Virus record (IMG/VR): IMGVR_UViG_3300033183_000354
Span: 64,001-128,000 of that record
Origin: a virus
DNA length: 64,000 nucleotides
Direction: 5' to 3' (one strand)
The notes beneath the pieces are model-generated. The model was given only the letters and a program-made list of their open reading frames with translations. It made no database searches and was not told where the DNA came from. Made by a program: the position numbers and the translations under genes. Below, in pieces: positions 2,313 to 62,110 of the stretch (position 1 is its first letter; each line of letters starts with the position of its first letter).

Positions 2313-2783
2313 ATGTCAAAGGGTAGAACTTTCGCGCAGACTTTAGGAAGAGCAATTAGTAGTGGTTCGATAACCAGTACTGGTTCAATTAGTGGTGCGG
2401 GTGGTGATGCTCAATATAGCGTCTCATCTGCAACTGCTGTAACTGTCAATACTAGTACGCCTACTGCAATATGTAGTACAAGTATTACAGTCACTGATAG
2501 ACCAATCTTACTCGTTGCGACTGGTGACGCAAATCCTAATCAAAGTGGCGGATGGCAATATTACCAAATTTATAGAGATTCTACTGCCATTGGTAAAAAG
2601 ATTATTAATGAAAATGGCGGCGGTACTTCTAAAAACTGTCCATGGGCGTTAACACATATAGATGCACCATCTGCAGGCACATATACGTATACTGTAAAAG
2701 CTTATCAAGGTTCTGGATCTATGACATATGGTGAAACAGGAGATGTGCAAGCGCCTACTATTACTGCAGTGGAAATTATATAA
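2313..2783 (+). CDS. Tail-fibre-tip-like beta protein, paralog 1
   Basis: Ser/Thr/Gly-rich; ends IDAPSAGTYTYTVK...ITAVEI. Confidence 0.6.
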   Translation: MSKGRTFAQTLGRAISSGSITSTGSISGAGGDAQYSVSSATAVTVNTSTPTAICSTSITVTDRPILLVATGDANPNQSGGWQYYQIYRDSTAIGKKIINENGGGTSKNCPWALTHIDAPSAGTYTYTVKAYQGSGSMTYGETGDVQAPTITAVEII

Positions 2784-3250
2784 TGTCAAGATCAAGGACA
2801 TTAGCTAAAAACTTTAGTAAAGCAATTGCGGCTGGCAATATTTCTTCTACAGGAACTATAGCAGCCGCCAGTAATGCTCAATATGGTGTATCATCTGCTA
2901 CAGCTATAACTGTTAATACTACTACTCCTACCACAATATGCAGTACAAGTATTACGGTTAGTAGTCGTCCCATATTAATAATAGCAACTGGCGATCAAAA
3001 TCCTAATCAAAATGGCGGATTCCACGCTTTAAGGTTATATCGTGATAGTACAGCAATTGGTAAATTAATATATAATGAAAATGAAGGATTCACTTCTAAA
3101 AATTGCCCATTTGCAATTTCAACTATTGATGAACCTACAGCTGGAACATATACATATTCTTTGAAAGCCTATCAAGGTTCTGGATCCATGACATACGGTG
3201 AAACAGGAGATGCGCAAGCACCTACGATCGTAGCAGTAGAAATTCTATGA
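2783..3250 (+). CDS. Tail-fibre-tip-like beta protein, paralog 2
   Basis: Full-length similarity to 2313..2783. Confidence 0.6.
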   Translation: MSRSRTLAKNFSKAIAAGNISSTGTIAAASNAQYGVSSATAITVNTTTPTTICSTSITVSSRPILIIATGDQNPNQNGGFHALRLYRDSTAIGKLIYNENEGFTSKNCPFAISTIDEPTAGTYTYSLKAYQGSGSMTYGETGDAQAPTIVAVEIL

Positions 3251-14361: not shown

Positions 14362-14381
14362 TTGATTTCAAACAAAAACAA

Positions 14382-14456
14382 AATGCGTTTTTTTGTTTAC
14401 AAGCTATCTTTTTTATGGTAAGATAGGACCATAATAAAAGAGGAGCTAATATTATG
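14382..14456 (+). repeat. Early promoter/stem-loop/SD cassette, copy 1
   Basis: Near-identical to 24001-24075; TTTACA(14396)-17-TAAGAT, SD GAGGAG. Confidence 0.85.
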
Positions 14457-14780
14457 GATACATTCACAGTCTATCAAGCCAATCTGGATCGCTTTATCGA
14501 AGATGGTAACTTCATCGACGCAGATAAAGAAAAGCTTTGGTTCGACATTTCACGTGGTAAAGTAACCAACAACGATGTCGTTCGTCATTATTGGCCAGTT
14601 TGCACAATTGAAGCTAAAGATCTTAACGAAGTTTTTCACATCGGTAACGTTGGTCCTGAAGATCGCATTCGTCGTTATAACGACACTAGAATGCATTCGA
14701 TCTCAGTTGGTGATGTTATCAGCAACGTGTTTACCGGTAAACGGTATGTAGTAAAACCATTTGGATTCGAGGAGCTTTAA
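14454..14780 (+). CDS. YodL-like domain protein
   Basis: LNEVFHIGN...MHSISVGDVI...VKPFGF. Confidence 0.65.
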   Translation: MDTFTVYQANLDRFIEDGNFIDADKEKLWFDISRGKVTNNDVVRHYWPVCTIEAKDLNEVFHIGNVGPEDRIRRYNDTRMHSISVGDVISNVFTGKRYVVKPFGFEEL

Positions 14781-14781
14781 T

Positions 14782-15333
14782 ATGACTGTATATCTTGACA
14801 TGGATGGCGTAATCGCCGACTTCTTCGGTGGAGTAGAAAAACTTTACAACGTTGATCATTGGAAATCAATCCAACATCGCGATGGGATCTTTGTAGAACT
14901 CCGTAATACAGACTTCTTTAATACGCTTGGTACATTTAGATTCCATCCTGAAATGGGTATCAATGACAAATTTGGTTATTGCCTTTCGCAACAAATCATT
15001 GATCGCGTAAAAGAAGTCTCAAACGGCGATTGGGGTATTTGCTCTTCACCCCTTCGCGGTGATATCATGAACTCAGCTTACTGGAAACGTGTATGGCTTG
15101 AACGTCATGGATTTATGCCAGAAGTTGAAAAGTGTATCTTCACTAGTAATAAACATAAATACGCAATGAACGATATCATGCGTAAACCAAATATCCTCAT
15201 CGATGATAAACCAGAAAATATTAAACGATGGGAAGAAGCTGGAGGTATCGGTATTCGCTTTCAGTGCAATCAAGACGATATTGAAGAATACCTGTTTATT
15301 GAACTGGAGAAAGCACTTGAAATCGCTCGCTGA
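14782..15333 (+). CDS. HAD-family 5'(3')-deoxyribonucleotidase
   Basis: YLDMDGVIADF, ICSSP, KRVWL, ILIDD; SD gaggag. Confidence 0.85.
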   Translation: MTVYLDMDGVIADFFGGVEKLYNVDHWKSIQHRDGIFVELRNTDFFNTLGTFRFHPEMGINDKFGYCLSQQIIDRVKEVSNGDWGICSSPLRGDIMNSAYWKRVWLERHGFMPEVEKCIFTSNKHKYAMNDIMRKPNILIDDKPENIKRWEEAGGIGIRFQCNQDDIEEYLFIELEKALEIAR

Positions 15334-15340
15334 ACTTATC

Positions 15341-15538
15341 ATGCTCAGACATGAGTTTGAGTTAATTACTTCTAATTATAATATGCCCGAAGGAAGTGAT
15401 ATAAATACACTCGAGTGGTTTATTGAAAACGGACACCGTTCCAATTCGCTTCGTAATGGATTTGATGATGCTAAAGCAATTGCTATCACAATCATTACGG
15501 AGCATAACGAATGGCTGAAGAAGAAAAGAAACGTGTAA
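15341..15538 (+). CDS. Hypothetical protein
   Basis: Fills the gap; WF..NG.RSNSLR motif; start uncertain. Confidence 0.5.
   Translation: MLRHEFELITSNYNMPEGSDINTLEWFIENGHRSNSLRNGFDDAKAIAITIITEHNEWLKKKRNV
15400..15407 (+). promoter_or_regulatory. T4 late promoter heading the EF-hand gene and glycan cluster
   Basis: Exact TATAAATA. Confidence 0.6.
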
Positions 15539-15855
15539 CTGTAGACGCTGATGCGGTCGAAGGTGCAGATACTAATGGAGACGGACACATCTCTAAAGAA
15601 GAGATGGAGATGCATTTGGAGTTTAAACGTAAAGCGTTAGAAGATGCTGATGCACAGCGAGATGCTATTCGAAAGATGGCATGGTTCTCGCTTTTCGGTT
15701 TGCTTGTATATCCTATTGGCATCGCGATCACTTCTGCTTTTGGCATGGATCAAGCATCTGAACTTATTGCAGATATTGCGCCTACATACTTTGCTTCTAT
15801 TGCAGTATTAGTTTCAGCATTCTTTGGAGCCGACGCTATCGCTAAAAAGAAGTAA
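15511..15855 (+). CDS. EF-hand plus 2-TM membrane protein
   Basis: DTNGDGHISKEE canonical EF loop; two hydrophobic helices. Confidence 0.75.
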   Translation: MAEEEKKRVTVDADAVEGADTNGDGHISKEEMEMHLEFKRKALEDADAQRDAIRKMAWFSLFGLLVYPIGIAITSAFGMDQASELIADIAPTYFASIAVLVSAFFGADAIAKKK

Positions 15856-15879
15856 TATATAATCTAAAGTGAGTTTGTT

Positions 15880-16665
15880 ATGAAAAGATTGATTTACCAA
15901 GTTTACGTTGGACGACGTTCTAAGTTATACGACCTTTGTGTCGATTCAGTAGGTCAATATTGTAAAGAACACAATATCGACCACGTCGTCCAACGAACCC
16001 CTATCCTAAGAATCAAACCTGACGTCTTCGCTACGAATCGAAGTAAAGAGTCGTATGAGAAGCATGGCGGTTATCTTCCTATCTTCGAAAAAGAAAACGC
16101 ATTTACGTACTGGCCAAAGTATGATCAAATTGCAATTGTGGATGCCGATATTTGGATTCGACCAGATTCTCCTAACATCTTTGATGAACTACCAATTGAA
16201 TATGATTTTGGCGGAGTGGTTGAGCGTGAGATGCCGATCACTGACCAATATCGTCAAAAGATCCATAACTATTCTCGTATGCAGTATGGTTCTATTCGAC
16301 TTGATTGGAAATGGGATAAACAGTCGGGTGGCGAATTCTTTAATATGGGGATGATGGTCATGAATAAGAGTATAAGTAAATACTTGAAGGGTCAAACTCC
16401 TCATCAGTTCCTTAATCGACCTGAGTTTAAAGCATTTGTTGATGGTATGGGCGCTTGGAAGTGGTCAACAGACCAAACATTATTAAATACTTGGATTAAA
16501 CAAGAAAAGATGAAGGTAAAGCATCTTGATTGGAAATGGAACGGTCTTTTCAAAGGCATTAAAGATGATAAGGTCCGTGAAGCACACTTTGTACACTTTT
16601 TTCTTAAAGATAAACTCCCTAATCGGGGTGAAAATGTAGATGAACTTATGAGGTTAGTAAAATGA
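15880..16665 (+). CDS. GT-A fold glycosyltransferase (GT8/GT34-like)
   Basis: IVDAD DxD motif, FFNMG, DQTLLN, WKWN, FVHF. Confidence 0.85.
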   Translation: MKRLIYQVYVGRRSKLYDLCVDSVGQYCKEHNIDHVVQRTPILRIKPDVFATNRSKESYEKHGGYLPIFEKENAFTYWPKYDQIAIVDADIWIRPDSPNIFDELPIEYDFGGVVEREMPITDQYRQKIHNYSRMQYGSIRLDWKWDKQSGGEFFNMGMMVMNKSISKYLKGQTPHQFLNRPEFKAFVDGMGAWKWSTDQTLLNTWIKQEKMKVKHLDWKWNGLFKGIKDDKVREAHFVHFFLKDKLPNRGENVDELMRLVK

Positions 16666-17801
16666 AAATCGTAGTTGTAGGCGGTGATGGCTTTTGTGGT
16701 TGGCCGACTTCTCTTAAACTGGCAAAAGAAGGCCATGACGTTACCATCGTTGATAACTTCTCACGTAGAAAGATCGACGAAGAGTTAAATAGTAATTCTT
16801 TGACTAACATCGCTGACATTTGGGACCGTTTAGAAGCAGCAAAAGAACATGGTATGGCCATGAGTCTTTGGACTGCTGATGCTACAAACTATAATTCAGT
16901 CTTTGCTATCGTAGATGATATTAGGCCTGATGTAATCGTACACTTTGCTGAACAACGCGCTGCTCCATATTCAATGATTAGCAATAAGGAAAGACGTTAT
17001 ACAGTTGATAATAATATCACTGCTACTCACAATATCCTTAATGCTATCGTCGATATTGATCCTAATATCCATCTGGTACACCTCGGAACGATGGGCGTAT
17101 ATGGTTATTCGAAAGAGTTTGGTGATATCCCTGAAGGATACCTGAACGTGAGGATTAATTCTACTCAACAAGATACTGATATCCTTTATCCTACAAATCC
17201 TGGCAGTGTCTATCATATGACTAAGTCACTTGATCAAATTATGTTCCAATTCTACAACAAAAATTGGGGCTTGAAAATCACTGACTTGCATCAAGGTATT
17301 GTTTGGGGTACACAGACCGAAGAGACTGAACTTGATGAAAGACTCGTTAATCGATTTGACTATGATGGCATCTACGGTACAGTGCTTAATCGATTTATCT
17401 CTCAAGCTGCTACCGGTAATGACATTACTGTGTATGGTGTAGGTGGTCAGGCAAGAGCTTTTATACATATTCAAGACACTGCACGTTGTATCAAACTTGC
17501 ATGTGAAAATCCACCAGAAGGTGGCAAGGTAAGGATCTTTAATCAGGTATCTGAAGTACGAACAGTTAAAGAACTAGCCGAGATCGTGGTAAATTCTTAT
17601 GGTGGTAATATCACTTATGTTGATAATCCAAGAAAAGAATTGGCCGAAAATGAACTGACAGTGAGCAATGAAGGCTTAAAGAGTCTTGGATTTGAACCTA
17701 TCACGCTGTCACAAAGCTTAGTAGATGACGTTAAGTTTATTGCCGAAAAGATGAAAGATAATCTAAAGAAGGAAAACATCTTAACGTCACCTAAATGGTA
17801 A
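16662..17801 (+). CDS. sqdB: UDP-sulfoquinovose synthase
   Basis: GGDGFCGWPT, HFAEQRAAPYSM, HLGTMGVYG, PGSVYHMTK, DLHQGIVWG, RFDYDG.YGTVLNRF, NPRKE. Confidence 0.93.
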   Translation: MKIVVVGGDGFCGWPTSLKLAKEGHDVTIVDNFSRRKIDEELNSNSLTNIADIWDRLEAAKEHGMAMSLWTADATNYNSVFAIVDDIRPDVIVHFAEQRAAPYSMISNKERRYTVDNNITATHNILNAIVDIDPNIHLVHLGTMGVYGYSKEFGDIPEGYLNVRINSTQQDTDILYPTNPGSVYHMTKSLDQIMFQFYNKNWGLKITDLHQGIVWGTQTEETELDERLVNRFDYDGIYGTVLNRFISQAATGNDITVYGVGGQARAFIHIQDTARCIKLACENPPEGGKVRIFNQVSEVRTVKELAEIVVNSYGGNITYVDNPRKELAENELTVSNEGLKSLGFEPITLSQSLVDDVKFIAEKMKDNLKKENILTSPKW

Positions 17802-17802
17802 A

Positions 17803-18477
17803 ATGAAAAATATTATATTACAACATTATACTGGTGAACTTGGTGAACTTGAAAAACAGAGCGTAGAAAATATCAAGAAATATGCTCATCGTTTTGGGGT
17901 CGACTATCAGCTCGTGACCGGTCAAGTATTCAACGAAAAGTTCACCACTCCAATTCAAAAGCTTTATATGCTTGATAAGGTATGGGATGACTACGATACT
18001 GTAGTTATGCTTGATATCGATATGTTTGCTCCAAAGGATCTTGAAGAAAATGTATTTGAAGTAGAAGGTATTGGTCTTCACGAAGATACTCAAAAAAGAT
18101 TGCATAATAATCTTTGTCGAACATATCCACATCTTGCAAGTAAGATGTATCCATATTGGGGAGGAGCTATCTATAAATTAGATAGAGCAGCACGTCAACA
18201 GCTGAGATTACCTCTTCAGTCCAACACGGGTTGGATGCAAAATTATAATAGACGATATCACTTCGGCGATGAAGGTATCATGCATACTCTTGCGCTTAAG
18301 TCAGACTTTAAGACTGATAAACCATATATGCATAAGAAGTGGTGTCAGTGTAGTTTTCTTCCGGAGCCAGAAAAAGCAGGCTTTATCCATATTCGCACAA
18401 AAGTAACTCCTCGAGGCCCGAAGAGAGAAAAGATCGATAACCTTAAATCGTTACAACAGAGAAATATCATCGAATGA
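17803..18477 (+). CDS. GT-A glycosyltransferase
   Basis: MLDID, DEG, FIH; paralogous to 15880. Confidence 0.75.
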   Translation: MKNIILQHYTGELGELEKQSVENIKKYAHRFGVDYQLVTGQVFNEKFTTPIQKLYMLDKVWDDYDTVVMLDIDMFAPKDLEENVFEVEGIGLHEDTQKRLHNNLCRTYPHLASKMYPYWGGAIYKLDRAARQQLRLPLQSNTGWMQNYNRRYHFGDEGIMHTLALKSDFKTDKPYMHKKWCQCSFLPEPEKAGFIHIRTKVTPRGPKREKIDNLKSLQQRNIIE

Positions 18478-19328
18478 AGATCTTAGTTACCGGCGCCACC
18501 GGATATATTGGCTCACACTTTGTTAAGACAGCAGCTGAACATGGTCATTCTGTAGTCGCTACAGATTATAATCACAAGCAAAATGATATTAGTCAATATG
18601 TTACTGAGATCATTGATTGGGATTTTCGTCGACCTGCTGGTATGAGACGATCATTTGATAAAGTCGTACATATTGGCGCGATGGGTAAGGTACCACTCTC
18701 TGTCAAAAATCCATGGCTTTATTATGAGACAAATGTTGTAGGCACAAAGAACGTGATCGACTTTGCGGACTGTGATCACTTTGTCTATTGCTCAACTGGT
18801 TCTGCTTTTAGTCCTGAAGCTTCTCCATATGCTGCTACTAAGTATGGCGGGGAATTGATAACAAAACAATTCAAAGAAAAACATAGCATCGTAAGGTTTT
18901 ATAATGTTTGTGGCAATAATGGATTTAATAAGTATGATGATGAATATTCCCATTTAATTAGAAAAGCAGCTGCTGTTGCAAATGGCAAGTTTGATACGCT
19001 TGAGATCTTTGGCACAGACTATGATACTCGAGATGGTACGTGTATTAGAAACTATACACACGTAACTGATATCGTTGATTCATTAGAACGAGTAGTTGAT
19101 AATGAGCCTACAGACATCATCGATTGTCTTGGTTCACCTGAAGGCGTAACAGTAAGAGAAGTAATCGATACGATGTGTAATGTTTCAAAAAAGAACTTAC
19201 ATGTAGTAGAAAGAGATAGAAGAGCCGGAGATATTCCAGTCTCAACTGTACCAGATAAATCAATACATTTTATGCAAACTAAGTCTGTTGCCGATATGTG
19301 TCTAGATGCATTGGATCATGAAGTATGA
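18474..19328 (+). CDS. galE: NAD-dependent epimerase, UDP-glucose 4-epimerase-like
   Basis: TGATGYIG, YAATK, FGTDYDTRDGTCIRNYTHV, RRAGD. Confidence 0.8.
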   Translation: MKILVTGATGYIGSHFVKTAAEHGHSVVATDYNHKQNDISQYVTEIIDWDFRRPAGMRRSFDKVVHIGAMGKVPLSVKNPWLYYETNVVGTKNVIDFADCDHFVYCSTGSAFSPEASPYAATKYGGELITKQFKEKHSIVRFYNVCGNNGFNKYDDEYSHLIRKAAAVANGKFDTLEIFGTDYDTRDGTCIRNYTHVTDIVDSLERVVDNEPTDIIDCLGSPEGVTVREVIDTMCNVSKKNLHVVERDRRAGDIPVSTVPDKSIHFMQTKSVADMCLDALDHEV

Positions 19329-20119
19329 AGAAATATTTAATTTACCAATATTGGATAGGTCCAACCATGGAGAAGTGTGCCGAATATGGCATTGAAACCA
19401 TGAAAGCGTATGCTAAAAAGATTGGCGCCGAATATCGATTCGAAAGAAATCCTACTTTCTTTAATAATATTTGTTCTCAACCTGCAGCCTTTAATTCATT
19501 TCAACCTGTCTTCAATGAAGAGTATCATGAGTATGATGCTGTACTAACACTTGACACTGACATCTTTCCAGTTGATGGCATCGAAGAGAATATCTTTGAG
19601 TCGGATCTTGGAGAGATGAATATTTGTGAAGAAGTGCATATGCCAGCGCTAAAGAAGAAGACTGGTACGTATGACATCCAAGAGAAATGGTCACAAGAAG
19701 TGGAACGATTCTATGACATTGAAATGCCTAAAAATAAAGATGGATTATACAAGATTTATAATGGCGGCTTAGCAATCTATACAAAAGATGGTATGAAGAA
19801 AGGCAAGGAGCTGATGCAACCTATTCAGCCTTTCATGGATCACTTTAGATCAAAGTTTAGTCGTAAACTCTTTTGGAGGGATCAGGCTTATGTACATGCT
19901 ATGTTCGTAAAAAGTGGTTTACAATCGAAAGAACTTGATGTAAAATGGAATACACAAATACACTATGAACCAAATACAAAAGGACCTAAAAGGCCAGTTA
20001 TAGATATTAGAAATAAAGATACTCGCTTCGTTCATCTACAACTATCTGGTTCAAGTGATTGGGATAAACAAAGGATTTGGGAAGCGGTCAATTTACCGCC
20101 AACTATGTGGAACAACTAA
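19325..20119 (+). CDS. GT-A glycosyltransferase
   Basis: LIYQY N-terminus, LDTD, YNGG, DQ, KWN, FVH. Confidence 0.8.
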   Translation: MKKYLIYQYWIGPTMEKCAEYGIETMKAYAKKIGAEYRFERNPTFFNNICSQPAAFNSFQPVFNEEYHEYDAVLTLDTDIFPVDGIEENIFESDLGEMNICEEVHMPALKKKTGTYDIQEKWSQEVERFYDIEMPKNKDGLYKIYNGGLAIYTKDGMKKGKELMQPIQPFMDHFRSKFSRKLFWRDQAYVHAMFVKSGLQSKELDVKWNTQIHYEPNTKGPKRPVIDIRNKDTRFVHLQLSGSSDWDKQRIWEAVNLPPTMWNN

Positions 20120-20847
20120 TGACTTTATGGAATGAAATTAAATCAAATATAGCAAATGACTTTAAGAGTAAGCAAAAAAACTTCTTAAAGTCAAATGCAG
20201 TGAAGAAGACGATGCATTTTCATAACCCAAAATTATGCAGTCGTTTATACGAACGTGTCAAAAAAGATCCACGGATTAGTCAAATTAAAGATCCTCAAAT
20301 TGGATCTCCTACACTTTATAAATTAGGCCTATCACAATCAACTCTTCGAAGTTTTTATTATTATAAGCTTTTTGAAGATACATTTGGAACTGAGATCGAT
20401 CATATTACAGACTTTGGAGCAGGTTATGGTAATAACTGCAGAGTATGGCATGATTTAGGGTTTAATGGTGAATATTATCTCGTTGACTTGCCTGAAGTCA
20501 CTGAGCTTCAACAATACTATACTTCAAAGACTGTTAAAGGTAATCTACGCTTTATGTCGGCCGAGACTCTCAAACAACCTTCAACTCGAAATGGATTATT
20601 CTTCGCTACATTTAGTTTGGATGAAACTCCTTATGAAGTAAGGGATATGATGGAAGAGAAGCTACGTAATTATCGTTATATCTTTATTCATTATAATGAT
20701 TCATTTCCTGTATATGGCCGCGACCAAGAAGAAATAGATAATGTAAAGTATTTTAAAGATCTTCAGAAGCGATTGTTTAAATATAATTTTTATGATATTA
20801 AAGATGAGATGCAGATGAAAAACTATATGATAGGTGTTAAGAAATGA
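20119..20847 (+). CDS. Putative sugar O-methyltransferase
   Basis: DFGAGYG SAM motif, VDLPEV..LQ.YY, ATFSLDETP. Confidence 0.75.
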   Translation: MTLWNEIKSNIANDFKSKQKNFLKSNAVKKTMHFHNPKLCSRLYERVKKDPRISQIKDPQIGSPTLYKLGLSQSTLRSFYYYKLFEDTFGTEIDHITDFGAGYGNNCRVWHDLGFNGEYYLVDLPEVTELQQYYTSKTVKGNLRFMSAETLKQPSTRNGLFFATFSLDETPYEVRDMMEEKLRNYRYIFIHYNDSFPVYGRDQEEIDNVKYFKDLQKRLFKYNFYDIKDEMQMKNYMIGVKK

Positions 20848-21419
20848 TCAATTCAGATTTATCACATGTAGAGACTCTAGTTGAATTTAATGAGTCTATT
20901 CGTGAACAACAAGAAGAAGCTCATGGTAAAGACTATTGTGCTATTCATGACGCAATTAAAAAGTATATGAAAGAATGTAAGAGTTATATGGAACTTGGTA
21001 CACATCAAGGCGGTACTGCTTCGACTGCTATGCTCTGTAATCCAGAATTTATTCAACTCGTTGATATTGACTTCTCTCGTTATAATAAATTCCTCGCACC
21101 TATCGCAAGAAAATACTGTAAAGAAAACGACATCAAGCTTTCAATCAAACAAGCTGACTCAACAGGCCTTGGTTCTACTGCTTGGGTCGATATGTTGGTC
21201 ATCGACTCTTATCATCATCCTCAGCATATGATAAAAGAATTAAATATGCATGCTGGTCACGTAAGTAAATATATCATCGCTCATGATACGAGCGTACTAC
21301 ATGGCAATCCTAATGATTCTCTTTATCGTGTTCTTAAAAACTTTGCGAGTGATGGTAAATGGGAAATCATTGAACACAATACAAATAATGTAGGTTATAC
21401 GGTATTGAAAAAACAATGA
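20844..21419 (+). CDS. Class I SAM methyltransferase (Methyltransf_24-like)
   Basis: ELGTHQGGT, LVIDSYH, IAHD, NNVG. Confidence 0.8.
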   Translation: MINSDLSHVETLVEFNESIREQQEEAHGKDYCAIHDAIKKYMKECKSYMELGTHQGGTASTAMLCNPEFIQLVDIDFSRYNKFLAPIARKYCKENDIKLSIKQADSTGLGSTAWVDMLVIDSYHHPQHMIKELNMHAGHVSKYIIAHDTSVLHGNPNDSLYRVLKNFASDGKWEIIEHNTNNVGYTVLKKQ

Positions 21420-22117
21420 AAGCATATGTAATCACGATAGAAGGTCACGGTATATCCGAAGAAGCCGCTGCTAATTGTGTCATTAGTAGTAAGTCAGTAA
21501 AGAATGACTTTGACGTTGAAGTCTTCAAAGCTGTTGTACCTTCTGAAGTTCCGGCTCTTATGCGAGACTTTAGAGTAAAATGGAACTATCCATGGGAAGG
21601 ACAAATATTTGACTTTAAGACTGGCCTTAAAAAGACTGCATATCCTACTAAAAATAGAGACGCAAGAATCGCATGTGCTCTGAGTCATTATTCTCTTTGG
21701 AGAGAATGTCTGCATAAGCATAAAGATATTCTTGTCCTTGAGCATGACGCTCGATTCAAACGTAAACTCGATACTGGATTAATAGATCGTAATAAGTATG
21801 TTATCATTGGCATTAATAACCCTCTCTTTGCGACGAGGAAATCAAAAGAATTTAAAGACAAAGTTGATCAATATCAAAAGCAGTATGAAGTCGTTCCTGC
21901 ACCGACTATTGATGATCATGATGTACCACAGGGATTAGCCGGAAACTCTGCATACATAATTAAACCAAAGGGCGCAGAGAAGATGATTAAGCTTGTTGAA
22001 GAACATGGCCTTTGGCCAAATGATGCACTAATGTGTAAACAGCTTGTACCATTACTTGGAGTAACGACCACATTTTACACAGAAGTACAAGGAACACCTT
22101 CAACTACATCGAGATAA
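21416..22117 (+). CDS. Glycosyltransferase family 25-like
   Basis: AYVI, ACALSHYSLW, VLEHDA, AYIIKPKGA, D. Confidence 0.85.
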   Translation: MKAYVITIEGHGISEEAAANCVISSKSVKNDFDVEVFKAVVPSEVPALMRDFRVKWNYPWEGQIFDFKTGLKKTAYPTKNRDARIACALSHYSLWRECLHKHKDILVLEHDARFKRKLDTGLIDRNKYVIIGINNPLFATRKSKEFKDKVDQYQKQYEVVPAPTIDDHDVPQGLAGNSAYIIKPKGAEKMIKLVEEHGLWPNDALMCKQLVPLLGVTTTFYTEVQGTPSTTSR

Positions 22118-22119
22118 AA

Positions 22120-22770
22120 ATGAAAGCATACGTAATTACGATTCAAGACAATGAAAGATCTGTGCAGGTAGCATCACGTTGCATGCAATCTGCAGAGAGA
22201 AATGGTATTGTAGTAAAACAATGGAAAGCTACAACTCCGATAGATATGCCTATCGATAAGCTTATCTTGGATGATGTAAAGATCACTGGATTACATGAAG
22301 CATATTCGCGAATCGCTAACTGTGCTGCAGCATTTCATTCTCATTATTCTTTATGGAAACACTGTGTCGAAACTGATGAAGAGCTATTGATTTTTGAACA
22401 CGATGCATATGTTATCGATCAGATTAAAACTAATCTTCCATATGAAAAGGCAATGTCAATCGGTAAGCCTTCTTATGGTAAGTTTAATATCCCTCCTCAT
22501 CTTGGCATTAATCCTCTTACGTCAAAAAGTTATTTCCCGGGTGCTCATGCATATTTTGTAAAACCAGCTGGAGCAAAAGAGTTTATTAAGCAAGCAAAGG
22601 TATTTGCTAGACCAACAGATGTATTCCTTAATACGCAATCATTTCCATGGTTACAAGAATATTATCCTTGGCCAGTAGAAGCGCGTGATAACTTTACAAC
22701 CATTCAAAACGAAAAGGGCTGTTACGCTAAACATAATTATGGTGAAGCTTATGACATTGAAGAAGTATGA
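22120..22770 (+). CDS. Glycosyltransferase family 25-like
   Basis: AFHSHYSLW, IFEHDA, GAHAYFVKPAGA; paralog of 21416. Confidence 0.85.
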   Translation: MKAYVITIQDNERSVQVASRCMQSAERNGIVVKQWKATTPIDMPIDKLILDDVKITGLHEAYSRIANCAAAFHSHYSLWKHCVETDEELLIFEHDAYVIDQIKTNLPYEKAMSIGKPSYGKFNIPPHLGINPLTSKSYFPGAHAYFVKPAGAKEFIKQAKVFARPTDVFLNTQSFPWLQEYYPWPVEARDNFTTIQNEKGCYAKHNYGEAYDIEEV

Positions 22771-23401
22771 TGAAGCGTTTTTGACAGGCTGTGATGAAGG
22801 CCATGCGTGGATGCTTCCATGGTTCGTTGAAAACTACAAAAAATATAACAAAACTCCTCTCGTCTTTGCTGATTTTGGGGTTTCTAAGGATACAATGGAG
22901 TTTGTGCAACAAAACTTCCATGCGATCCTTGATATGACGAAGACTAAAGAAAAAGGTTGGTTTAAGAAACCACGTTCAATGCTCTATGCGCCTTCACGTA
23001 AGACTGTATGGATTGATACTGACTGTGAAGTAAAAGCAAATATCGAAGACTTATTCAATATGCTTGAGCCTGGTAAACTTGCTATGGTCGAAGATAAACC
23101 ATGGTCAAAGAGAAGAGGAGATCTGTGGCATAACTCAGGAGTAGTGGGCTTTATAGATAAGCCTATAATCCTCCATCAATGGTGTCAAAATGTACACGAT
23201 GATCCTACTGTTGGAGATCAAGAGGTCTTACATAGTATGTTAAATCCTATTACCAAATTAACATACATTAAAGACTTACCAAATGAATATAATGTGATGA
23301 GACTGCAACTTGATCATGATGGATATAAAGGTGAAACGAAGATTATCCATTGGACAGGCGCAAAAGGGAAAGAGCGTATTAGGAGTATGATGAATGGCTA
23401 G
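22751..23401 (+). CDS. GT8-like glycosyltransferase
   Basis: WFKKP, WIDTD, NSGV, GDQEVL, LPNEYN, IIHWTG.KGK. Confidence 0.85.
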   Translation: MTLKKYDEAFLTGCDEGHAWMLPWFVENYKKYNKTPLVFADFGVSKDTMEFVQQNFHAILDMTKTKEKGWFKKPRSMLYAPSRKTVWIDTDCEVKANIEDLFNMLEPGKLAMVEDKPWSKRRGDLWHNSGVVGFIDKPIILHQWCQNVHDDPTVGDQEVLHSMLNPITKLTYIKDLPNEYNVMRLQLDHDGYKGETKIIHWTGAKGKERIRSMMNG

Positions 23402-24002
23402 AGTTGTTCATGTATTAGGTAATGGTGATTCAGCTTCTTTTTATAATGCTGAACCTCGTAAAGGATTAAAGCTTACCTGTAATTTGCCACCATTTGAAGT
23501 AAATGACGTATATGCTACTACGATCGTTGACTTTAAGATGATGAGAGCGATGGCTAAAGGTGAGATCATTGTTCCAGGTCAATGGGTCCTTGGTATGAGA
23601 CCAAAAATATTCCTCGATGGTAACCCTCAAGCCCATATGCGGTTTGCCCAACAGATTAAACAATTCTATTTGACTCTACCAAAGTATTGTCCTAACTATA
23701 CAGATTTAAGCTGTGGTCACTTTGCCGTACATTATGCAGCATCAACGTTTAAGCCTGATGAGATCCATATGTATGGATTTGATGCTATCTTTGACTTTAA
23801 TCTACGTAGCTCTTCAGATCTTTTTATGCATTCAGATCGTGAAAATATGAATAACAATCGCCTAGCTACTAACTGGAGACCAGTTTGGACTGGCATCTGG
23901 AATGAGTTCAAAGACGTCAAATTTGTACTCCATCATTTTCATAATGGTCTTAAGCCTAAACACGGTGATAACGTAGAGATTAAAGTTTATTCGAAAAAAT
24001 AA
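23394..24002 (+). CDS. Glycan-modification protein (GT29/MAF-like fold)
   Basis: VLGNGDS, CN, SCG..A, IHMYGFD pattern. Confidence 0.55.
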   Translation: MARVVHVLGNGDSASFYNAEPRKGLKLTCNLPPFEVNDVYATTIVDFKMMRAMAKGEIIVPGQWVLGMRPKIFLDGNPQAHMRFAQQIKQFYLTLPKYCPNYTDLSCGHFAVHYAASTFKPDEIHMYGFDAIFDFNLRSSSDLFMHSDRENMNNNRLATNWRPVWTGIWNEFKDVKFVLHHFHNGLKPKHGDNVEIKVYSKK

Positions 24003-24075
24003 TGCGTTTTTTTGTTTACAAGCTCCTCTTTTTATGGTAAGATAGGATCATAATAAAAGAGGAGTTAATATTATG
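24001..24075 (+). repeat. Early promoter/stem-loop/SD cassette, copy 2
   Basis: TTTACA(24015)-17-TAAGAT; CTCCTCTTTT 24023-24032 / AAAAGAGGAG 24055-24064. Confidence 0.85.
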
Positions 24076-30076: not shown

Positions 30077-30096
30077 TTGTTTTTATTAGATAAAAT

Positions 30097-30139
30097 AATG
30101 CGTTTTTTTGTGTACATTGCCTAAAGATTGTAGTAGTAT
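30097..30139 (+). promoter_or_regulatory. Early promoter
   Basis: AATGCGTTTTTTTG element, TGTACA-17-TAGTAT, SD GAGGAG downstream. Confidence 0.75.
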
Positions 30140-30166
30140 AGTCCTATAATCAAAGAGGAGTTTATT

Positions 30167-30403
30167 ATGATTATTAAACCTGAAGATCGTCTGGCTTATA
30201 TCAAAAAAGCTGCAGCCAAGTTTAACAAAAAAGTTAAGCGGAATGCTCGTGTTCGCGACTATACCACTCCTGTCGAAGATCGTAGCACTGACGACTCTGT
30301 TAACATCAACGCTTGGACTGATGCCGAAAAGTATGTCGACGAATATTATGGCGATCGCGTACGTGGTCAAACTGCATACGAATCATATGAAGGATGGAAC
30401 TAA
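30167..30403 (+). CDS. Early hypothetical protein
   Basis: Promoter and SD. Confidence 0.65.
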   Translation: MIIKPEDRLAYIKKAAAKFNKKVKRNARVRDYTTPVEDRSTDDSVNINAWTDAEKYVDEYYGDRVRGQTAYESYEGWN

Positions 30404-35404: not shown

Positions 35405-35453
35405 GACTACTTCGGTAGTCGGGGATTAGGAGACTTCGGTCTCCTAATTCTTT
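35405..35453. terminator. Tandem C-UUCG-G hairpins, probable bidirectional terminator
   Basis: GACTAC-TTCG-GTAGTC and ATTAGGAGAC-TTCG-GTCTCCTAAT between convergent units. Confidence 0.85.
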
Positions 35454-37287
35454 ATGGGCCTTGATCCCAAATCATCTCGCTAGGATTAAATGAACTCACA
35501 TCACCGCGTGGAAGAAAGGTGTTATTTTCATTTTGAATAGAAACGTTATCACCTACTTGACCTACAGCTACAGTTCCTCTTGATACAGGTACATTATTAT
35601 TTGTTGAAGCAGTAATTTGAGCTGCGCCAGACGCGACACCACTATCAACTTGAGGCTTGCTTATGGCTTGTCGCGGCTTGGGTGCCGGTGTATAACTCTC
35701 ATCAAATGTATTAGTGTCAGGCAATGTTGATGCAACGCGGGCCGCTTCTCTTAATTTTAGTTCTTCATCTGTCTTTCCAATGAGCCATGCTGCAACTTTT
35801 CTTCCGGCATAATCACCACCAAAATAACCAGCTAGTGTTCCAATGACACCACCAATGAGTGTTCCCGGTCCAGGGAATGCACTACCAATAGCACCTCCAA
35901 GTAATCCGAATCCAATCGTTCCAAGTGTTCCTCCAATAAGAGGACCTAATTGTTCAATCTTTTCATCCATGCTTAGACTATCATCCATCATAATTGATGC
36001 TGCCAGCGCGCTATCGAGTGCAGCAAAGAGTAACGCTGAACCCGGAATCCCACGTAAGCCTTTAATCCGTGGAAACTTTTGCCACCATTTGGCTCCAGTA
36101 CCAACTGGCTTCATCTTCTTTAAGTCTGCTTCACTTAATACTTGACTAGTCGCTTTACCATCTGCACCGGCGATCGCATAGTTGCCTTTAGCAGTCTTTA
36201 CAACGTTCTTACCGTCTAATGTACCATAGACTCGAGGAGCTGATGGCATCCTAGTATTTGCTGCCCTTTGAGCATCAATTTCTGCTGCAGTAGGACCTCT
36301 ACGTACCATATTAGATACGCCCTTTGCAGCTAAAGCTGCGCCACCAGCGACAGCAGCCCCTCCAACAATATCTTCGGTTGTAATTTCTCCTGATCCATCA
36401 TCACCTACTATACCATCAAAAAATTTATCATATACGTATGTTCCAGCTGCAACTGCAGCTGCTATTGCAAGAAGCCTTCCTCCTTTGCGCGTGCCAGCAA
36501 ATAGTGCAATATTTTTTAAACCTCTCATAAATGGACCAGGGGCAATGAGCAATGCCATACCAGCAAGAAGACCTGCAGTTTCTTTAAAGTTTGATGTTAA
36601 TGTATCCCAGTCTCCTGTGATAAGAGCATTTATACCATCTAACCCTTTACCTACACCTTCTTGGAGTGCTACCATTACCTTTGTTAAATCTGGCAACTTA
36701 ATTCCAAGATCATCTAATTTCTTTTTTAAGTTTTCTCCAAGTTCACCAAGCTTGTTCATATTCTCGTCAGTGGCAAGAGCACCGACTGCAACACCAATGA
36801 GACCGAATCTCTTGCCTAGAAGCGAACCAAATGAACCACCAAGTGTCGCTCTTTCGGCCGCATCGCCGAGTTCTTTTTTTCCAGTTTGACTTGTTACCCA
36901 ATCTCCAATCTCATCTGCAAAGACTACACCAAGAGCAGCAGGAATACCTTTCTTTGCAAACGTACCAAATAGTGATTTACCAAAGGCAAGGAGTCCACCG
37001 CCGGTTAATAATCCAGTCGGTAACGTCGTAAATTTATCAAACTTATCTCCAAGAGATGAAGCTCCACGACCAATAGCTCCACCCGCTGCGCCTACACTTA
37101 CACCAATCTTTTGCATCAGAGATTGTTTCATCTCTCTTTGTTCTTCAAGCTCATCGCCTTTCTTTGTTTCCATATAAGAAACAAAGCGATCAATAGCACC
37201 ACTCGTTTTAGCAGTGTTATCGCTCACTTGCGTAAGGATTTTACCTTGAGATAAAAGAGTATCGTTGAGTGCAGCTAAACTAGACAT
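35452..37287 (-). CDS. Tape-measure-like protein (gp29 equivalent)
   Basis: 611 aa, helical Gly/Ala-rich with hydrophobic GGxxG segments; follows gp26/gp51. Confidence 0.65.
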   Translation of the reverse strand: MSSLAALNDTLLSQGKILTQVSDNTAKTSGAIDRFVSYMETKKGDELEEQREMKQSLMQKIGVSVGAAGGAIGRGASSLGDKFDKFTTLPTGLLTGGGLLAFGKSLFGTFAKKGIPAALGVVFADEIGDWVTSQTGKKELGDAAERATLGGSFGSLLGKRFGLIGVAVGALATDENMNKLGELGENLKKKLDDLGIKLPDLTKVMVALQEGVGKGLDGINALITGDWDTLTSNFKETAGLLAGMALLIAPGPFMRGLKNIALFAGTRKGGRLLAIAAAVAAGTYVYDKFFDGIVGDDGSGEITTEDIVGGAAVAGGAALAAKGVSNMVRRGPTAAEIDAQRAANTRMPSAPRVYGTLDGKNVVKTAKGNYAIAGADGKATSQVLSEADLKKMKPVGTGAKWWQKFPRIKGLRGIPGSALLFAALDSALAASIMMDDSLSMDEKIEQLGPLIGGTLGTIGFGLLGGAIGSAFPGPGTLIGGVIGTLAGYFGGDYAGRKVAAWLIGKTDEELKLREAARVASTLPDTNTFDESYTPAPKPRQAISKPQVDSGVASGAAQITASTNNNVPVSRGTVAVGQVGDNVSIQNENNTFLPRGDVSSFNPSEMIWDQGP

Positions 37288-60075: not shown

Positions 60076-60284
60076 TGTTTAATGAATATAAAAAAGTTGA
60101 AGGTGAACCTGGTTATATTAGGCATGAACAAACAGGTGTGGTGTTGAATATAAATAGTAGTGAAGCGAATAGTGCTAGAGAAAGAAAAAAATTAAGAAGA
60201 CAAAAAGAGCAGGAACTTGAAGAATTAAAGAATGAAGTAAGTGAGATCAAAGAATTGCTTCTTAAATTAGTAGAGAAACAGTAA
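60075..60284 (+). CDS. Small conserved coiled-coil protein
   Basis: KVEG..GY.R..TG.V.N...LKNEVSEIKELL. Confidence 0.7.
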   Translation: MFNEYKKVEGEPGYIRHEQTGVVLNINSSEANSARERKKLRRQKEQELEELKNEVSEIKELLLKLVEKQ

Positions 60285-62110
60285 TGGCAAAACCTATCAT
60301 TAATTACTCTGATACGATTACCGGTTGGATAGATAAGAACAACTTATTGACAAATGATGTCGGGGATCTTGCTAATCTTAATACTACGGTTGATTCTGAT
60401 ATCGTAGGTGCATTAAATGGTATCGATTCTGATATTGGCGCTGTATCTTCTCTGAATACATCAAATAAAACGCTTGTAGGAGCTATTAATGAGAACCACG
60501 GTCAACTTGATCAAGTTGATTCAGATCTTGGTGCTCGGACTTCGCTAACTACCACTGATAAGACAGACGTCGTTTCGGCTATTAATGAATTAGATGCTGA
60601 ACTTGGTACTATTACAGCTGGTGCCATGGGTACTACTGCTTCTACTGTAGGAGGAGCTATTTCTGAACTTGAAGTTGAGATCGATACTCTAAATACAAAA
60701 GTAGAACCTAGTCAAGCTTTGACTACTACCGCTACTACTCTTTCAGATGCTATTAATGAGCATGAGACCGATATCTCTACTATCAACGATACAATTGGCA
60801 GTGGCGGACTTAATACAACTGCTCAAACGCTGATCGGTGCTATTAACGAACATGACGCTGAGATTGGTGCTGCTTCATTAAATACGAGTGCTACTACGCT
60901 TCGTGGAGCTATTAATGAACATGAAGCTGATATTGGTAATATGACATTTACTGGTCTTTCAGCGACTAATATTTCAGCTGCTATTCGTGAAACTGTGACA
61001 GAACTTGGCGCAGTAACTTCATTAACAACTTCTGCTTCAACTGCAGTAACTGCTATTAATGAACTTGATGCTGAACTTGGTACTATTACTTCAGGCGCGA
61101 TGGGAACCACAGCTTCAACCGTTTCTGGCGCTATTGCTGAACTTGAAGCAGAGATTAATACACTTAATACATTTACTGATGTTGGGACATCGCTTAATAC
61201 CACTGCTACATCTTTAGCTGATGCTATTAATGAACATGAGACATTGATCAATAATTTAGACAGTGATATTGGTACAAGAACAAATCTAACGACTTCAACT
61301 ACTTCAAGTTTAGTAGGAGCTATTAATGATCTTCAATCTCAAATTGATGTTCTTGATAGTAGTACAAATAACTCAGTCGGCGATTTGAATGACTTAGATA
61401 CGACTGCTAAGACTAATGTCGTTGCTGCGATTAATGAAGTATATAATAGCATCGGTGCTGATATTGATGAAACGATTCAAGATGCAGTTGGATCAATGTT
61501 CTCAAGTAATACTGAAACTGGTATTGCCGTAACATATGATGATAATAATAATAAAACTAATTTTGTAGTTGATCAATCTTGGGTACGAGGTAGATTATCT
61601 GGTAGTTCAGGCATTTCATATAATTCTAGTACTGGTGCTATTAGCCATAGTGATACTTCTTCTGCCACTTCTGTAAATAATAGTGGTCAAACGTTTATTC
61701 AAGATATTACAGTTGATGCATTTGGTCACATTACAGCTATCGGTAGCGCCACTGCTTCTCACTATCAAGGTTGGGACTTATATACAGACGGCACGAGCCG
61801 CGGCTCAATCTCCAGTGAAGAGAACGTAAACTTTGCTGGTGGAAGCGGTATTAGTATCACATATAGTTCTAGTAATAATACGATGACGTTTGCGGCTACA
61901 TCTGATCCAGTTGTAACAGTTACTCTTACAGGTGATGTTACCGGTTCAGGATCAGCTACTCTCACCAATCTTGGTAACGGAACAGCTTCATTCTCTACAT
62001 CACTTGCAGCAAATACCGTTACTTCATCCGAACTCTCGGGTGCAACATCTCTTATCATTTATAACTCAGCCGGTACGGCAGTAAAGACGCTCTATGGCGC
62101 AGGATCTTAA
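60284..62110 (+). CDS. Fibritin-like segmented coiled-coil fibre protein
   Basis: Many TTAxTLxxAINE(H/L) repeats; late promoter TATAAATA at 60149. Confidence 0.7.
   Translation: MAKPIINYSDTITGWIDKNNLLTNDVGDLANLNTTVDSDIVGALNGIDSDIGAVSSLNTSNKTLVGAINENHGQLDQVDSDLGARTSLTTTDKTDVVSAINELDAELGTITAGAMGTTASTVGGAISELEVEIDTLNTKVEPSQALTTTATTLSDAINEHETDISTINDTIGSGGLNTTAQTLIGAINEHDAEIGAASLNTSATTLRGAINEHEADIGNMTFTGLSATNISAAIRETVTELGAVTSLTTSASTAVTAINELDAELGTITSGAMGTTASTVSGAIAELEAEINTLNTFTDVGTSLNTTATSLADAINEHETLINNLDSDIGTRTNLTTSTTSSLVGAINDLQSQIDVLDSSTNNSVGDLNDLDTTAKTNVVAAINEVYNSIGADIDETIQDAVGSMFSSNTETGIAVTYDDNNNKTNFVVDQSWVRGRLSGSSGISYNSSTGAISHSDTSSATSVNNSGQTFIQDITVDAFGHITAIGSATASHYQGWDLYTDGTSRGSISSEENVNFAGGSGISITYSSSNNTMTFAATSDPVVTVTLTGDVTGSGSATLTNLGNGTASFSTSLAANTVTSSELSGATSLIIYNSAGTAVKTLYGAGS

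Follow-up and report, generated by a model that had tools for sequence, protein, structure and literature searches.

The stretch of DNA analysed here (the window, 64,000 nucleotides) covers bases 64001–128000 of the IMG/VR virus record IMGVR_UViG_3300033183_000354, a sequence of 152,719 bp whose ends are direct terminal repeats. It carries an island of glycan-building genes centred on sqdB, the gene of a uridine diphosphate (UDP)-sulfoquinovose synthase, and this island probably makes UDP-sulfoquinovose and a sulfoquinovose-containing glycoconjugate. Eleven genes on the plus strand (15880–24002), which according to the open reading frame (ORF) calls overlap by 1–8 nt or are separated by no more than 24 nt, are translationally coupled and encode enzymes that are all soluble by hydropathy. 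The transcription unit to which they belong (14375–24075) would be a self-contained, exchangeable module. We tentatively favour a cytoplasmic pathway in which a methylated, sulfoquinovose-containing glycan is placed onto host lipid A-core or another envelope acceptor; taken as a whole, this statement is a serious possibility rather than a probability. The genome encodes gp5, gp6, and gp8-type baseplate genes and is thus that of a T4-like myovirus.

Identity of the UDP-sulfoquinovose synthase

The SqdB/SQD1-type synthase gene lies at 16662–17801 (+) and was assigned from PDB entry 1qrr, the NCBIfam model NF041015, and the catalytic residues. In a phmmer comparison with Arabidopsis SQD1 (1qrr), residues 2–379 of the phage protein aligned with residues 3–382 at ~50% identity (E 4.4e-92). 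The catalytic residues Thr145, Tyr182, His183, and Lys186 (SQD1 numbering) are kept, and the segments LGTMGVYGY and SVYHMTK align with GTMGEYG and SFYHLSK of SQD1. Among nine viral SqdB sequences, the catalytic set is intact in eight, the ninth (L032) having Ser for Thr. The NAD-binding motif GGDGFCGW is invariant across the viral SqdB clade, and the SQD1-specific blocks EQRAAPYSM, TDLHQG, and NRFDYDG.YGTVLNRF are invariant or nearly so. Full-length homology, the GGDGxCGW motif, and the catalytic Thr, Tyr-His, and Lys are shared both with SQD1/SqdB of plants and cyanobacteria, which serve the synthesis of sulfoquinovosyl diacylglycerol (SQDG), and with Agl3 of Sulfolobus, which serves N-glycan sulfoquinovose. 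Based on this strong homology, the phage enzyme is predicted to make UDP-sulfoquinovose from UDP-glucose and sulfite.

A shift of the chemistry to another 6-modified or a 4-keto UDP-sugar, with no sulfoquinovose formed, appears very unlikely. The long stem of the viral clade (0.86 substitutions per site) and the lack of a sulfite-supplying gene in the phage would agree with such a shift, as would the score on NF041015, which at 373 bits is under the equivalog cut-off of 575. This cut-off is uninformative here, because SqdB homologues of cyanobacteria and alphaproteobacteria score 335–349 bits, so that bona fide cyanobacterial enzymes are lower still on the same model. The conserved catalytic residues and SQD1-specific blocks, together with the full-length identity to SQD1, argue for retention of the original reaction.

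Glycosyltransferases and tailoring enzymes

Around sqdB, family and structure assignments gave four GT8-like glycosyltransferases (GTs), two GT25 enzymes, and one sialyltransferase/MAF-like enzyme. The inventory of genes and the clear sqdB call given by the initial annotation, which was made from the sequence alone, were correct except for two start codons, now placed at 20119 and 22739, and hidden Markov model (HMM) and structure assignment of the transferases, which it had proposed as a check, was carried out here.

The first GT8-like gene (15880–16665, +) is translationally coupled to sqdB. Its product scored 23.7 bits with Pfam GT8 (PF01501; E 4.3e-5), just below the cut-off of 24.3. An AlphaFold2 (AF2) model with a mean predicted local distance difference test score (pLDDT) of 84 matched UGGT, XXYLT1, LARGE1, PBCV-1 A64R, and LgtC in Foldseek (E 2e-9 to 1e-6), as well as XXT1 (GT34) and glycogenin, the whole range being E 2e-9 to 7e-6. 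According to the model, the protein has a retaining GT-A fold with GT8, GT24, and GT34 enzymes as nearest relatives. The second paralogue (17803–18477, +) is related to the 15880 gene (hhalign probability 99.4%, E 5e-22) and to the third (BLASTP E 1.5e-9) and has a DxD motif. The third (19325–20119, +) is linked to the 15880 family by hhalign (E 1.3e-48) and to the GT8 domain of LARGE1 by a profile match (E 1.4e-4). A second GT8-like lineage is represented by 22739–23401 (+), with 22.0 bits against the same Pfam cut-off (E 1.3e-4), DxD, NSG, DQ, and HxxGxxK motifs, and a homologue in Pelagibacter phage HTVC008M (34% identity, E 7e-28). The DxD motif is invariant in the GT8-like families. We call these enzymes GT8-like and not certified members of the family, since their scores lie below the Pfam gathering threshold.

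The two GT25 genes (21416–22117 and 22120–22770, both +) encode members of the LgtB/Lic2A/LpsA family, with 57.1 and 48.2 bits for PF01755 against a cut-off of 24, and are paralogous to each other (BLASTP E 1.7e-16). The last gene of the block (23394–24002, +) encodes a candidate sialyltransferase (GT42/GT29) or MAF-like nucleotide-sugar transferase. Its AF2 model (pLDDT 86) matched CstII and PmST in Foldseek with a probability of 0.96–0.98, E 1.6e-3 to 1e-2, and a template modelling (TM) score of 0.40–0.46; with ST8SiaIII and Maf included, the matches had a probability of 0.8–0.98 and E 2e-3 to 7e-2. The protein has an invariant GNGD (the nucleotide-binding GNG motif), and the nearest named Atlas cluster has MptE-like domains in 13% of its members. 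No sequence-level family match was found for it in Pfam or PDB, and PDB profile searches with the 17803, 15880, and 23394 families returned nothing useful. The modelled resemblance to sialyltransferases and Maf is thus weak but consistent.

Three accessory genes encode tailoring enzymes. A short GalE-like UDP-hexose 4-epimerase of 284 aa (18474–19328, +) scored 158.6 bits with TIGR01179, under the cut-off of 262; its top PDB matches were all UDP-glucose 4-epimerases (E 8e-29), and YxxxK is present. The gene at 20119–20847 (+), whose corrected and checked start is an ATG overlapping the upstream stop, encodes a NanM-type sugar O-methyltransferase (TIGR04371, 44.9 bits against a cut-off of 44). 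The next gene (20844–21419, +) encodes a class I S-adenosylmethionine-dependent methyltransferase of the sugar O-methyltransferase type, CmcI/Methyltransf_24-like. Its match to Pfam RMNT_CmcI is sub-threshold (E 0.0024), and in Atlas its neighbours by feature and structure belong to CmcI/Methyltransf_24 clusters, some of which are fused to GT2 or GT90; a PDB profile search with this family gave nothing useful.

Promoters, boundaries, and timing of expression

The unit is bounded by two copies of an 82-nt direct repeat, 90% identical and 9,619 nt apart, which resemble the promoter early stem-loop (PeSL) cassettes of T4-type phages. Both copies contain the early promoter TTTACA-N17-TGgTAAGAT, with an extended −10 element, and a hairpin. 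Cassette 1 (14375–14456, +) has a predicted fold of −20.2 kcal/mol (z −3.25). Cassette 2 (23994–24075, +; −19.7 kcal/mol, z −3.7) ends the unit and begins the next one. In each hairpin, the −10 element is enclosed and the AAGAGGAG Shine-Dalgarno site of the next gene is base-paired. Because an early cassette lies just upstream and no terminator was predicted on the plus strand between the two cassettes, the transcription unit is 14375–24075 (9.7 kb), fed by the early promoter. A third, degenerate cassette copy (65%) at 30090–30171 keeps the GCGTTTTTTTG...TGTACA 5' part and AAGAGGAG; its hairpin is unstable (z ~0).

PeSL cassettes are likewise short repeats that combine a stable stem-loop with a sigma70-like promoter and flank variable modules, and they mediate modular shuffling in the hyperplastic regions of T4-type phages (PMC2839356, Arbiol et al., 2010; PMC4122927, Comeau et al., 2014). 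The present cassettes are distinguished by a −10 element that lies within the stem and by the pairing of the ribosome-binding site downstream. No cassette-to-cassette deletion joint was detected in DNA contigs from four marine metagenome runs, the contigs being short, fragmented strain variants.

A T4-type late promoter, TATAAATA, is located at 15400–15407 (+), within the ORF 15341–15538 and 104 nt before the next start. Most relatives have it at the same position, where an ATA (Ile) codon stays invariant amid synonymous change; in relatives without the small ORF, it stands 30–40 nt upstream of the homologue of the 15511 gene. Four related loci carry TATAGATA in its place. As a word, TATAAATA is not over-represented in the genome, which is nearly all coding, and 17 of its 28 copies lie 6–63 nt upstream of same-strand starts. 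The late promoter recognised by the initial annotation is therefore upheld, both by its conservation in most relatives and by the genomic copies that precede starts. The unit bounds then proposed (15400–24002), with no early-promoter cassette until 24001, have to be revised, since the sigma70-type cassette 1 lies ~1 kb upstream of 15400. Late expression likewise does not define the timing of this unit, given the early cassette, no intervening predicted terminator, and the metabolic region in which the island is found. Judging from these elements, expression is probably both early, from the cassette promoter, and late, from TATAAATA; since both promoters are present, timing does not single out virions as the acceptor.

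Four genes precede the block of 11 within the unit. The first after cassette 1 (14454–14780, +) has no assigned function, no family match, and no homologue at the related loci. It is followed by a gene for an NT5C-like 5'(3')-deoxyribonucleotidase/HAD phosphatase (14761–15333, +; Pfam NT5C, 30.5 bits against a cut-off of 24.8), which is located upstream of the island in relatives too (52–68% identity, 20 of 31 related loci). The ORF that holds the late promoter (15341–15538, +) encodes 65 aa and is conserved in 21 of the 31 related loci (tblastn, 47–77% identity). Directly behind that promoter, the gene at 15511–15855 (+) encodes the sole membrane protein of the unit (114 aa), in which a canonical EF-hand calcium loop, DTNGDGHISKEE, is followed by two predicted transmembrane helices (hydropathy; Pfam EF-hand_5 E 4.8e-5, sub-threshold). 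The protein is 52–87% identical in relatives; candidate roles are a membrane anchor for the transferases or a function related to lysis.

Candidate acceptors of the glycan

None of the proteins encoded by the complete phage genome exceeds two hydrophobic helices, no GT2 enzyme was found, and GT4 (PF00534) gave no match, whereas 14 of 14 control genomes matched. A flippase, an initiating phosphoglycosyltransferase, a polymerase, and a ligase are not encoded by the phage. Together with the solubility of the island enzymes, these absences indicate that the sugars are added to an acceptor that can be reached from the cytoplasm. A phosphoadenosine phosphosulfate (PAPS) reductase, which would supply sulfite, is also lacking in the phage, and therefore sulfite, as well as UDP-glucose, would come from the host.

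The pathway may be pictured as follows. SqdB would turn host UDP-glucose and host sulfite into UDP-sulfoquinovose, a step that rests on strong homology, and the GalE-like enzyme would give a second UDP-hexose epimer. The four retaining GT8-like enzymes, the two inverting GT25 enzymes, and the sialyltransferase-like enzyme would add sugars in sequence, and the two O-methyltransferases would cap the chain, the likely product being an anionic, partly methylated oligosaccharide. As a flippase, an initiating enzyme, a polymerase, and a ligase are all missing from the phage, the chain would have to be extended on an acceptor accessible from the cytoplasmic side, preferably nascent host lipid A-core, that is, lipo-oligosaccharide (LOS), or a similar envelope glycolipid that is exported by the host. 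The infected cell would thereby be re-surfaced, for example with a block of superinfection or with no re-adsorption of progeny to debris as the result. Expression would begin early from the cassette promoter and be reinforced late by the conserved TATAAATA.

The enzyme families are one ground for preferring LOS. LgtC, LgtB, Lic2A, and CstII represent the families that build the LOS outer core. Such enzymes extend lipid A-core on the inner side of the membrane and do so without a dedicated carrier, flippase, or polymerase. In the island, GT25 is above the cut-off, and a GT8-like fold matches LgtC. The assembly of the LOS outer core in Neisseria, Haemophilus, and Campylobacter uses the families of LgtC (GT8), LgtB/Lic2A/LpsA (GT25), and CstII/Lst (sialyltransferases), to which the GT8-like, GT25, and candidate sialyltransferase-like enzymes of the island correspond. 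It is likewise carried out by soluble or peripheral enzymes without an initiating lipid-carrier enzyme or flippase of its own and is highly strain-variable. The phage island differs in the UDP-sulfoquinovose donor, in the O-methylated products, and in being encoded by a lytic phage, and lipid A-core as the acceptor is putative here.

Position points in the same direction. The neighbours of the island are the genes for ribonucleotide reductase (RNR), PhoH, and NT5C, the PhoH gene being 2 kb upstream, and the island is not located among virion genes. The virion block lies ~11 kb downstream, and its first identified gene encodes a tail-associated lysin (35452–37287). The island thus occupies an early, metabolic hyperplastic region adjoining RNR, PhoH, and NT5C. 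GT8-rich islands of pelagimyophages have been interpreted as modifying the host O-chain (PMC7029224). The outer-core toolkit of GT8, GT25, and sialyltransferase-like enzymes, the absent genes, the position, and this published interpretation together make remodelling of an envelope glycolipid the preferred explanation.

Several points weigh against it. The acceptor is deduced from family habits and absences only, the conserved late promoter fits virion modification equally well, and the fold of the 15880 protein also matches the protein- or capsid-directed enzymes UGGT, glycogenin, and PBCV-1 A64R. New LOS must also get to the surface within the latent period. SAR11 bacteria are not known to have assimilatory sulfate reduction; if they were the hosts, the source of sulfite would be unclear, the phage itself being without PAPS reductase.

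The acceptor might instead be a virion protein, as the initial annotation had proposed, with the transferases O-glycosylating capsid, baseplate, or fibre proteins before or during assembly to give a sulfonated, methylated coat. We regard this as the most serious alternative, possible but rather doubtful, and the more specific statement that the phage coats its tail fibres, baseplate, or capsid with an O-linked, O-methylated, sulfoquinovose-containing oligosaccharide as more doubtful still. The late promoter ahead of the island agrees with such use, and soluble GT-A enzymes need no lipid carrier, a flippase not being encoded. The 15880 fold resembles PBCV-1 A64R, which glycosylates the capsid, as well as UGGT, and among the viral neighbours of the CmcI-type methyltransferase are fusions with GT2 or GT90. 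Chloroviruses combine glycosyltransferase and methyltransferase domains for capsid glycans, and glycosylation of mycobacteriophage virions provides a precedent. In both chlorovirus PBCV-1 (A64R, which the 15880 model matched at E ~1e-7) and Che8-type mycobacteriophages, virus-encoded cytoplasmic GT-A enzymes act along with sugar methyltransferases; the phage island is not adjacent to capsid genes, and a virion acceptor is here a candidate. The island lies outside the structural block, between early-promoter cassettes and beside nucleotide-metabolism genes. A scan of the proteome for acceptor tracts revealed no collagen-like and no strongly Ser/Thr-rich ones; only two borderline Ser/Thr windows, in two large proteins encoded outside the window, just reached the threshold of 16 Ser/Thr in 30 residues. 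Nothing specific to virion proteins was found, and the enzyme families and the missing flippase and initiating enzyme fit lipid A-core at least as well. If such a sulfoquinovose-containing coat existed, the phage would provide the first case of a sulfonated glycan on any virus as well as of protein-linked sulfoquinovose outside Sulfolobales, and a widespread marine phage clade would be a previously unrecognised, non-phototrophic oceanic source of sulfoquinovose.

Distribution and evolution of the island

SqdB at 50–75% identity is encoded by 31 IMG/VR contigs, and 29 of these share the island core, which comprises NT5C, the small ORF, the 15511 membrane protein, the GT8-like paralogues, both GT25 genes, and the 22739 and 23394 genes. 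The most constant partner of SqdB is the 19325 transferase, detected by tblastn at 28 of the 31 loci, full-length with 33–84% identity in 19 and weakly (24–29%) in the rest. The tailoring genes vary. The GalE-like gene is found at 78–86% identity solely in L017 and L019–L021, a homologue of the 20119 O-methyltransferase solely in L021, and both methyltransferases in few relatives. In other members, the inserted genes encode an FkbM methyltransferase, a B12 radical-SAM enzyme, other epimerases, a HAD-nucleotidyltransferase fusion, or a cytidylyltransferase-cupin protein. Variable tailoring genes around a constant core are the pattern of a surface-glycan locus. In the metagenome contig of a related strain, a further 552 bases separate the GalE-like gene from the 19325 transferase (~19328), and the island thus shows gene-content microdiversity. 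Metagenomic protein collections, Tara among them, contain 2,435 clusters of the 15880 family.

In a maximum-likelihood tree, 25 viral SqdBs and the SqdB of Paramylibacter ulvae formed one clade on a long stem (0.86 substitutions per site), with a support of 100 in the Shimodaira–Hasegawa-like approximate likelihood ratio test (SH-aLRT). The single supported clade points to long retention of SqdB in phages. The viral SqdBs L031 and L032 branched outside it and are two independent acquisitions. In both, SqdB is next to a GT4 transferase and a sulfotransferase (L031, 7085–13028; L032, 7822–12403); in L031, methyltransferases of the Methyltransf_24 and Methyltransf_23 types are present too.

The nearest cellular SqdBs are those of Rhodobacterales, with 67% and ~58% identity. 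The only cellular SqdB within the viral clade is that of Paramylibacter ulvae (L033, 8001–13600; 67% identity), whose gene adjoins two Stf0 sulfotransferase genes and a gene for an 895-aa GT4-GT2 fusion; this may reflect transfer from a phage to a bacterium, into a sulfo-glycan locus. Downstream of alphaproteobacterial sqdB are ORFs for PAPS reductase, GT2, a phosphoesterase, or an epimerase, and not SqdD. In ten cellular loci, from many Rhodobacterales and a few other Pseudomonadota (L034, L035, L038, L042, L045, L049, L062, L067, L084, and L095), a protein of ~850 aa flanks sqdB and is followed by proteins of ~520 and ~611 aa. Pfam identities were taken from L035, where these are a hybrid histidine kinase/response regulator, a BcsB-like protein, and a GT2 synthase, and in the other loci the correspondence is one of ORF sizes. 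The arrangement of sqdB with BcsB-like and GT2 genes suggests a sulfoquinovose-containing polymer rather than SQDG.

These data bear on sulfolipid synthesis, in which SqdB and one GT8-like transferase, in analogy to Rhodobacter SqdD, would make SQDG or another sulfoquinovose glycolipid as a phosphorus-sparing replacement of phospholipids, the other transferases serving elsewhere. SqdB is the classical enzyme of SQDG synthesis, a GT8-like gene is adjacent and translationally coupled to it, PhoH is encoded 2 kb upstream, and the nearest cellular SqdBs come from Rhodobacterales; the SqdD of Rhodobacter is a GT8 enzyme. The phage genome nevertheless has no GT4 partner of the SqdX/SQD2 type. Its sqdB belongs to a separate clade and is accompanied by genes for O-methyltransferases and for GT8-like, GT25, and sialyltransferase-like enzymes. 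Relatives of the phage transferases were found by tblastn and HMMs next to sqdB at none of the 80 closest cellular loci, and the 15880 gene is absent from 10 SqdB-bearing loci. Seven transferases and two methyltransferases far exceed the needs of SQDG synthesis, and the independently acquired viral SqdBs are also accompanied by sulfotransferases and methyltransferases. Sulfolipid synthesis alone is thus decidedly unlikely. The earlier proposal that the product is more than SQDG, namely a sulfonated and methylated glycan of several sugars, gains from the missing SqdX/SQD2 homologue and from the setting of the independent viral SqdBs among transferases, methyltransferases, and sulfotransferases. 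The logic of the island is closer to the glycan use of Sulfolobus Agl3 than to sulfolipid synthesis.

Genomic setting and DNA modification

By comparison of gp6, the closest isolates are Phage C48C1 (43%), Methylophilales phage Melnitz (34%), and Pelagibacter phage HTVC008M (33%), and the phage is therefore placed, from these sequence identities, in an uncultured, pelagimyophage-like marine T4-like group. A megablast search of 50,697 phage records gave no match for the island, and tblastn of SqdB against phage records returned generic epimerases alone, at <28% identity.

The genome also encodes a close homologue of the T4 gp42 deoxycytidine monophosphate (dCMP) hydroxymethylase (PDB 1b49, E 3e-70). 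The sugars could in principle be transferred onto hydroxymethylcytosine or another modified base of the phage DNA, which would agree with the NT5C-like nucleotidase travelling with the island; phage sets of glycosyltransferase, epimerase, and nucleotide-sugar genes are known to build multi-sugar DNA glycans (bioRxiv 10.1101/2023.12.21.572611; PMC13326640). We consider this highly improbable. The related genome G001, collinear end to end, retains the island and has no ThyA-family gene (PF00303), its syntenic gp42 slot being 1.75 kb as opposed to 7.5 kb here, and G002 also retains the island with no PF00303 match. The island is therefore independent of hydroxymethylated bases. Moreover, the gp42 gene has its own adjoining modification island 45 kb away, and GT8, GT25, and sialyltransferase-like enzymes differ from the DNA-glycosylating families described in the same two studies (10.1101/2023.12.21.572611; PMC13326640). 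Tet/JBP gave no match in a search that had no positive control.

The gp42 region (G000:C1:33400-40800, outside the window) contains the gp42-type dCMP hydroxymethylase and a dCMP deaminase gene, followed by unassigned genes that include a PALP-like ORF of 313 aa. The 7.5-kb slot is absent from G001 and has other content in G003 (ugd-gp42-cd-...-epimerase). A 339-aa ORF of the gp42 island was considered as a T4 beta-glucosyltransferase and rejected, the faint N-terminal match (16 bits) being unconfirmed by PDB or Pfam.

Other features of the genome were noted. A separate GT8-like open frame occurs outside the window near the tail-fibre region (G000:C1:129379-129831, minus strand; Pfam E 6.7e-5). 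A fibre-like gene at 60284–62110 contains eight repeat units of 45 nt (60476–61357), spaced 69–93 nt apart, inside a 474-nt duplication, with the protein motif ...T.A.T...GAINEHE.... A tandem duplication at 2313–3250 is formed by two adjoining ORFs of 155 aa with 75–79% DNA identity over ~370 nt.

Comparison with known systems and significance

The closest described counterparts are the GT8-rich "lipopolysaccharide (LPS)" islands of pelagimyophages and cyanomyophages (PMC7029224), which are likewise hypervariable clusters of GT8-type and nucleotide-sugar genes in T4-like marine myoviruses. In HTVC008M, a related island occupies the same place beside RNR and contains genes for a UDP-glucose dehydrogenase, a carbamoyltransferase, and a methyltransferase, together with the homologous GT8-like gene. 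The donor gene in the present island is SqdB, in place of UDP-glucose dehydrogenase or besides it (G001, G003), and the fibre-associated "host recognition cluster" does not include the island. SqdB and UDP-glucose dehydrogenase do not replace each other in a complementary pattern, since G001 and G003 have both. Sulfoquinovose is not mentioned in the pelagimyophage study of Zaragoza-Solas et al. (2020; PMC7029224), in which "sulfo" has no matches. Our literature search returned one report of a putative viral UDP-sulfoquinovose synthase (PMC7785012) and none for T4-like marine phages. That report, on a Mu-like virus of the Cariaco Basin, also discusses the enzyme in relation to glycosylation; it differs in the type of virus, in concerning one contig from euxinic water, and in describing no multi-transferase island. 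Glycosyltransferase islands and PeSL cassettes are already known, and the island centred on SqdB is a new form of such islands.

A common clade of marine T4-like phages has its own UDP-sulfoquinovose synthase within a multi-transferase island. Infected cells, probably heterotrophic alphaproteobacteria, are predicted to make sulfonated glycoconjugates. The glycan islands of these phages would diversify by a swap of anionic donors, SqdB here and UDP-glucose dehydrogenase with carbamoyltransferase in HTVC008M and C48C1. Bacterial sulfoquinovose glycans beyond lipids are also predicted, as the nearest cellular sqdB genes adjoin genes for sulfotransferases and for polymerising GT2/BcsB-like proteins. 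The purpose of the "LPS genes" of marine myophages is a long-standing question, and the SqdB island provides a testable handle on it.

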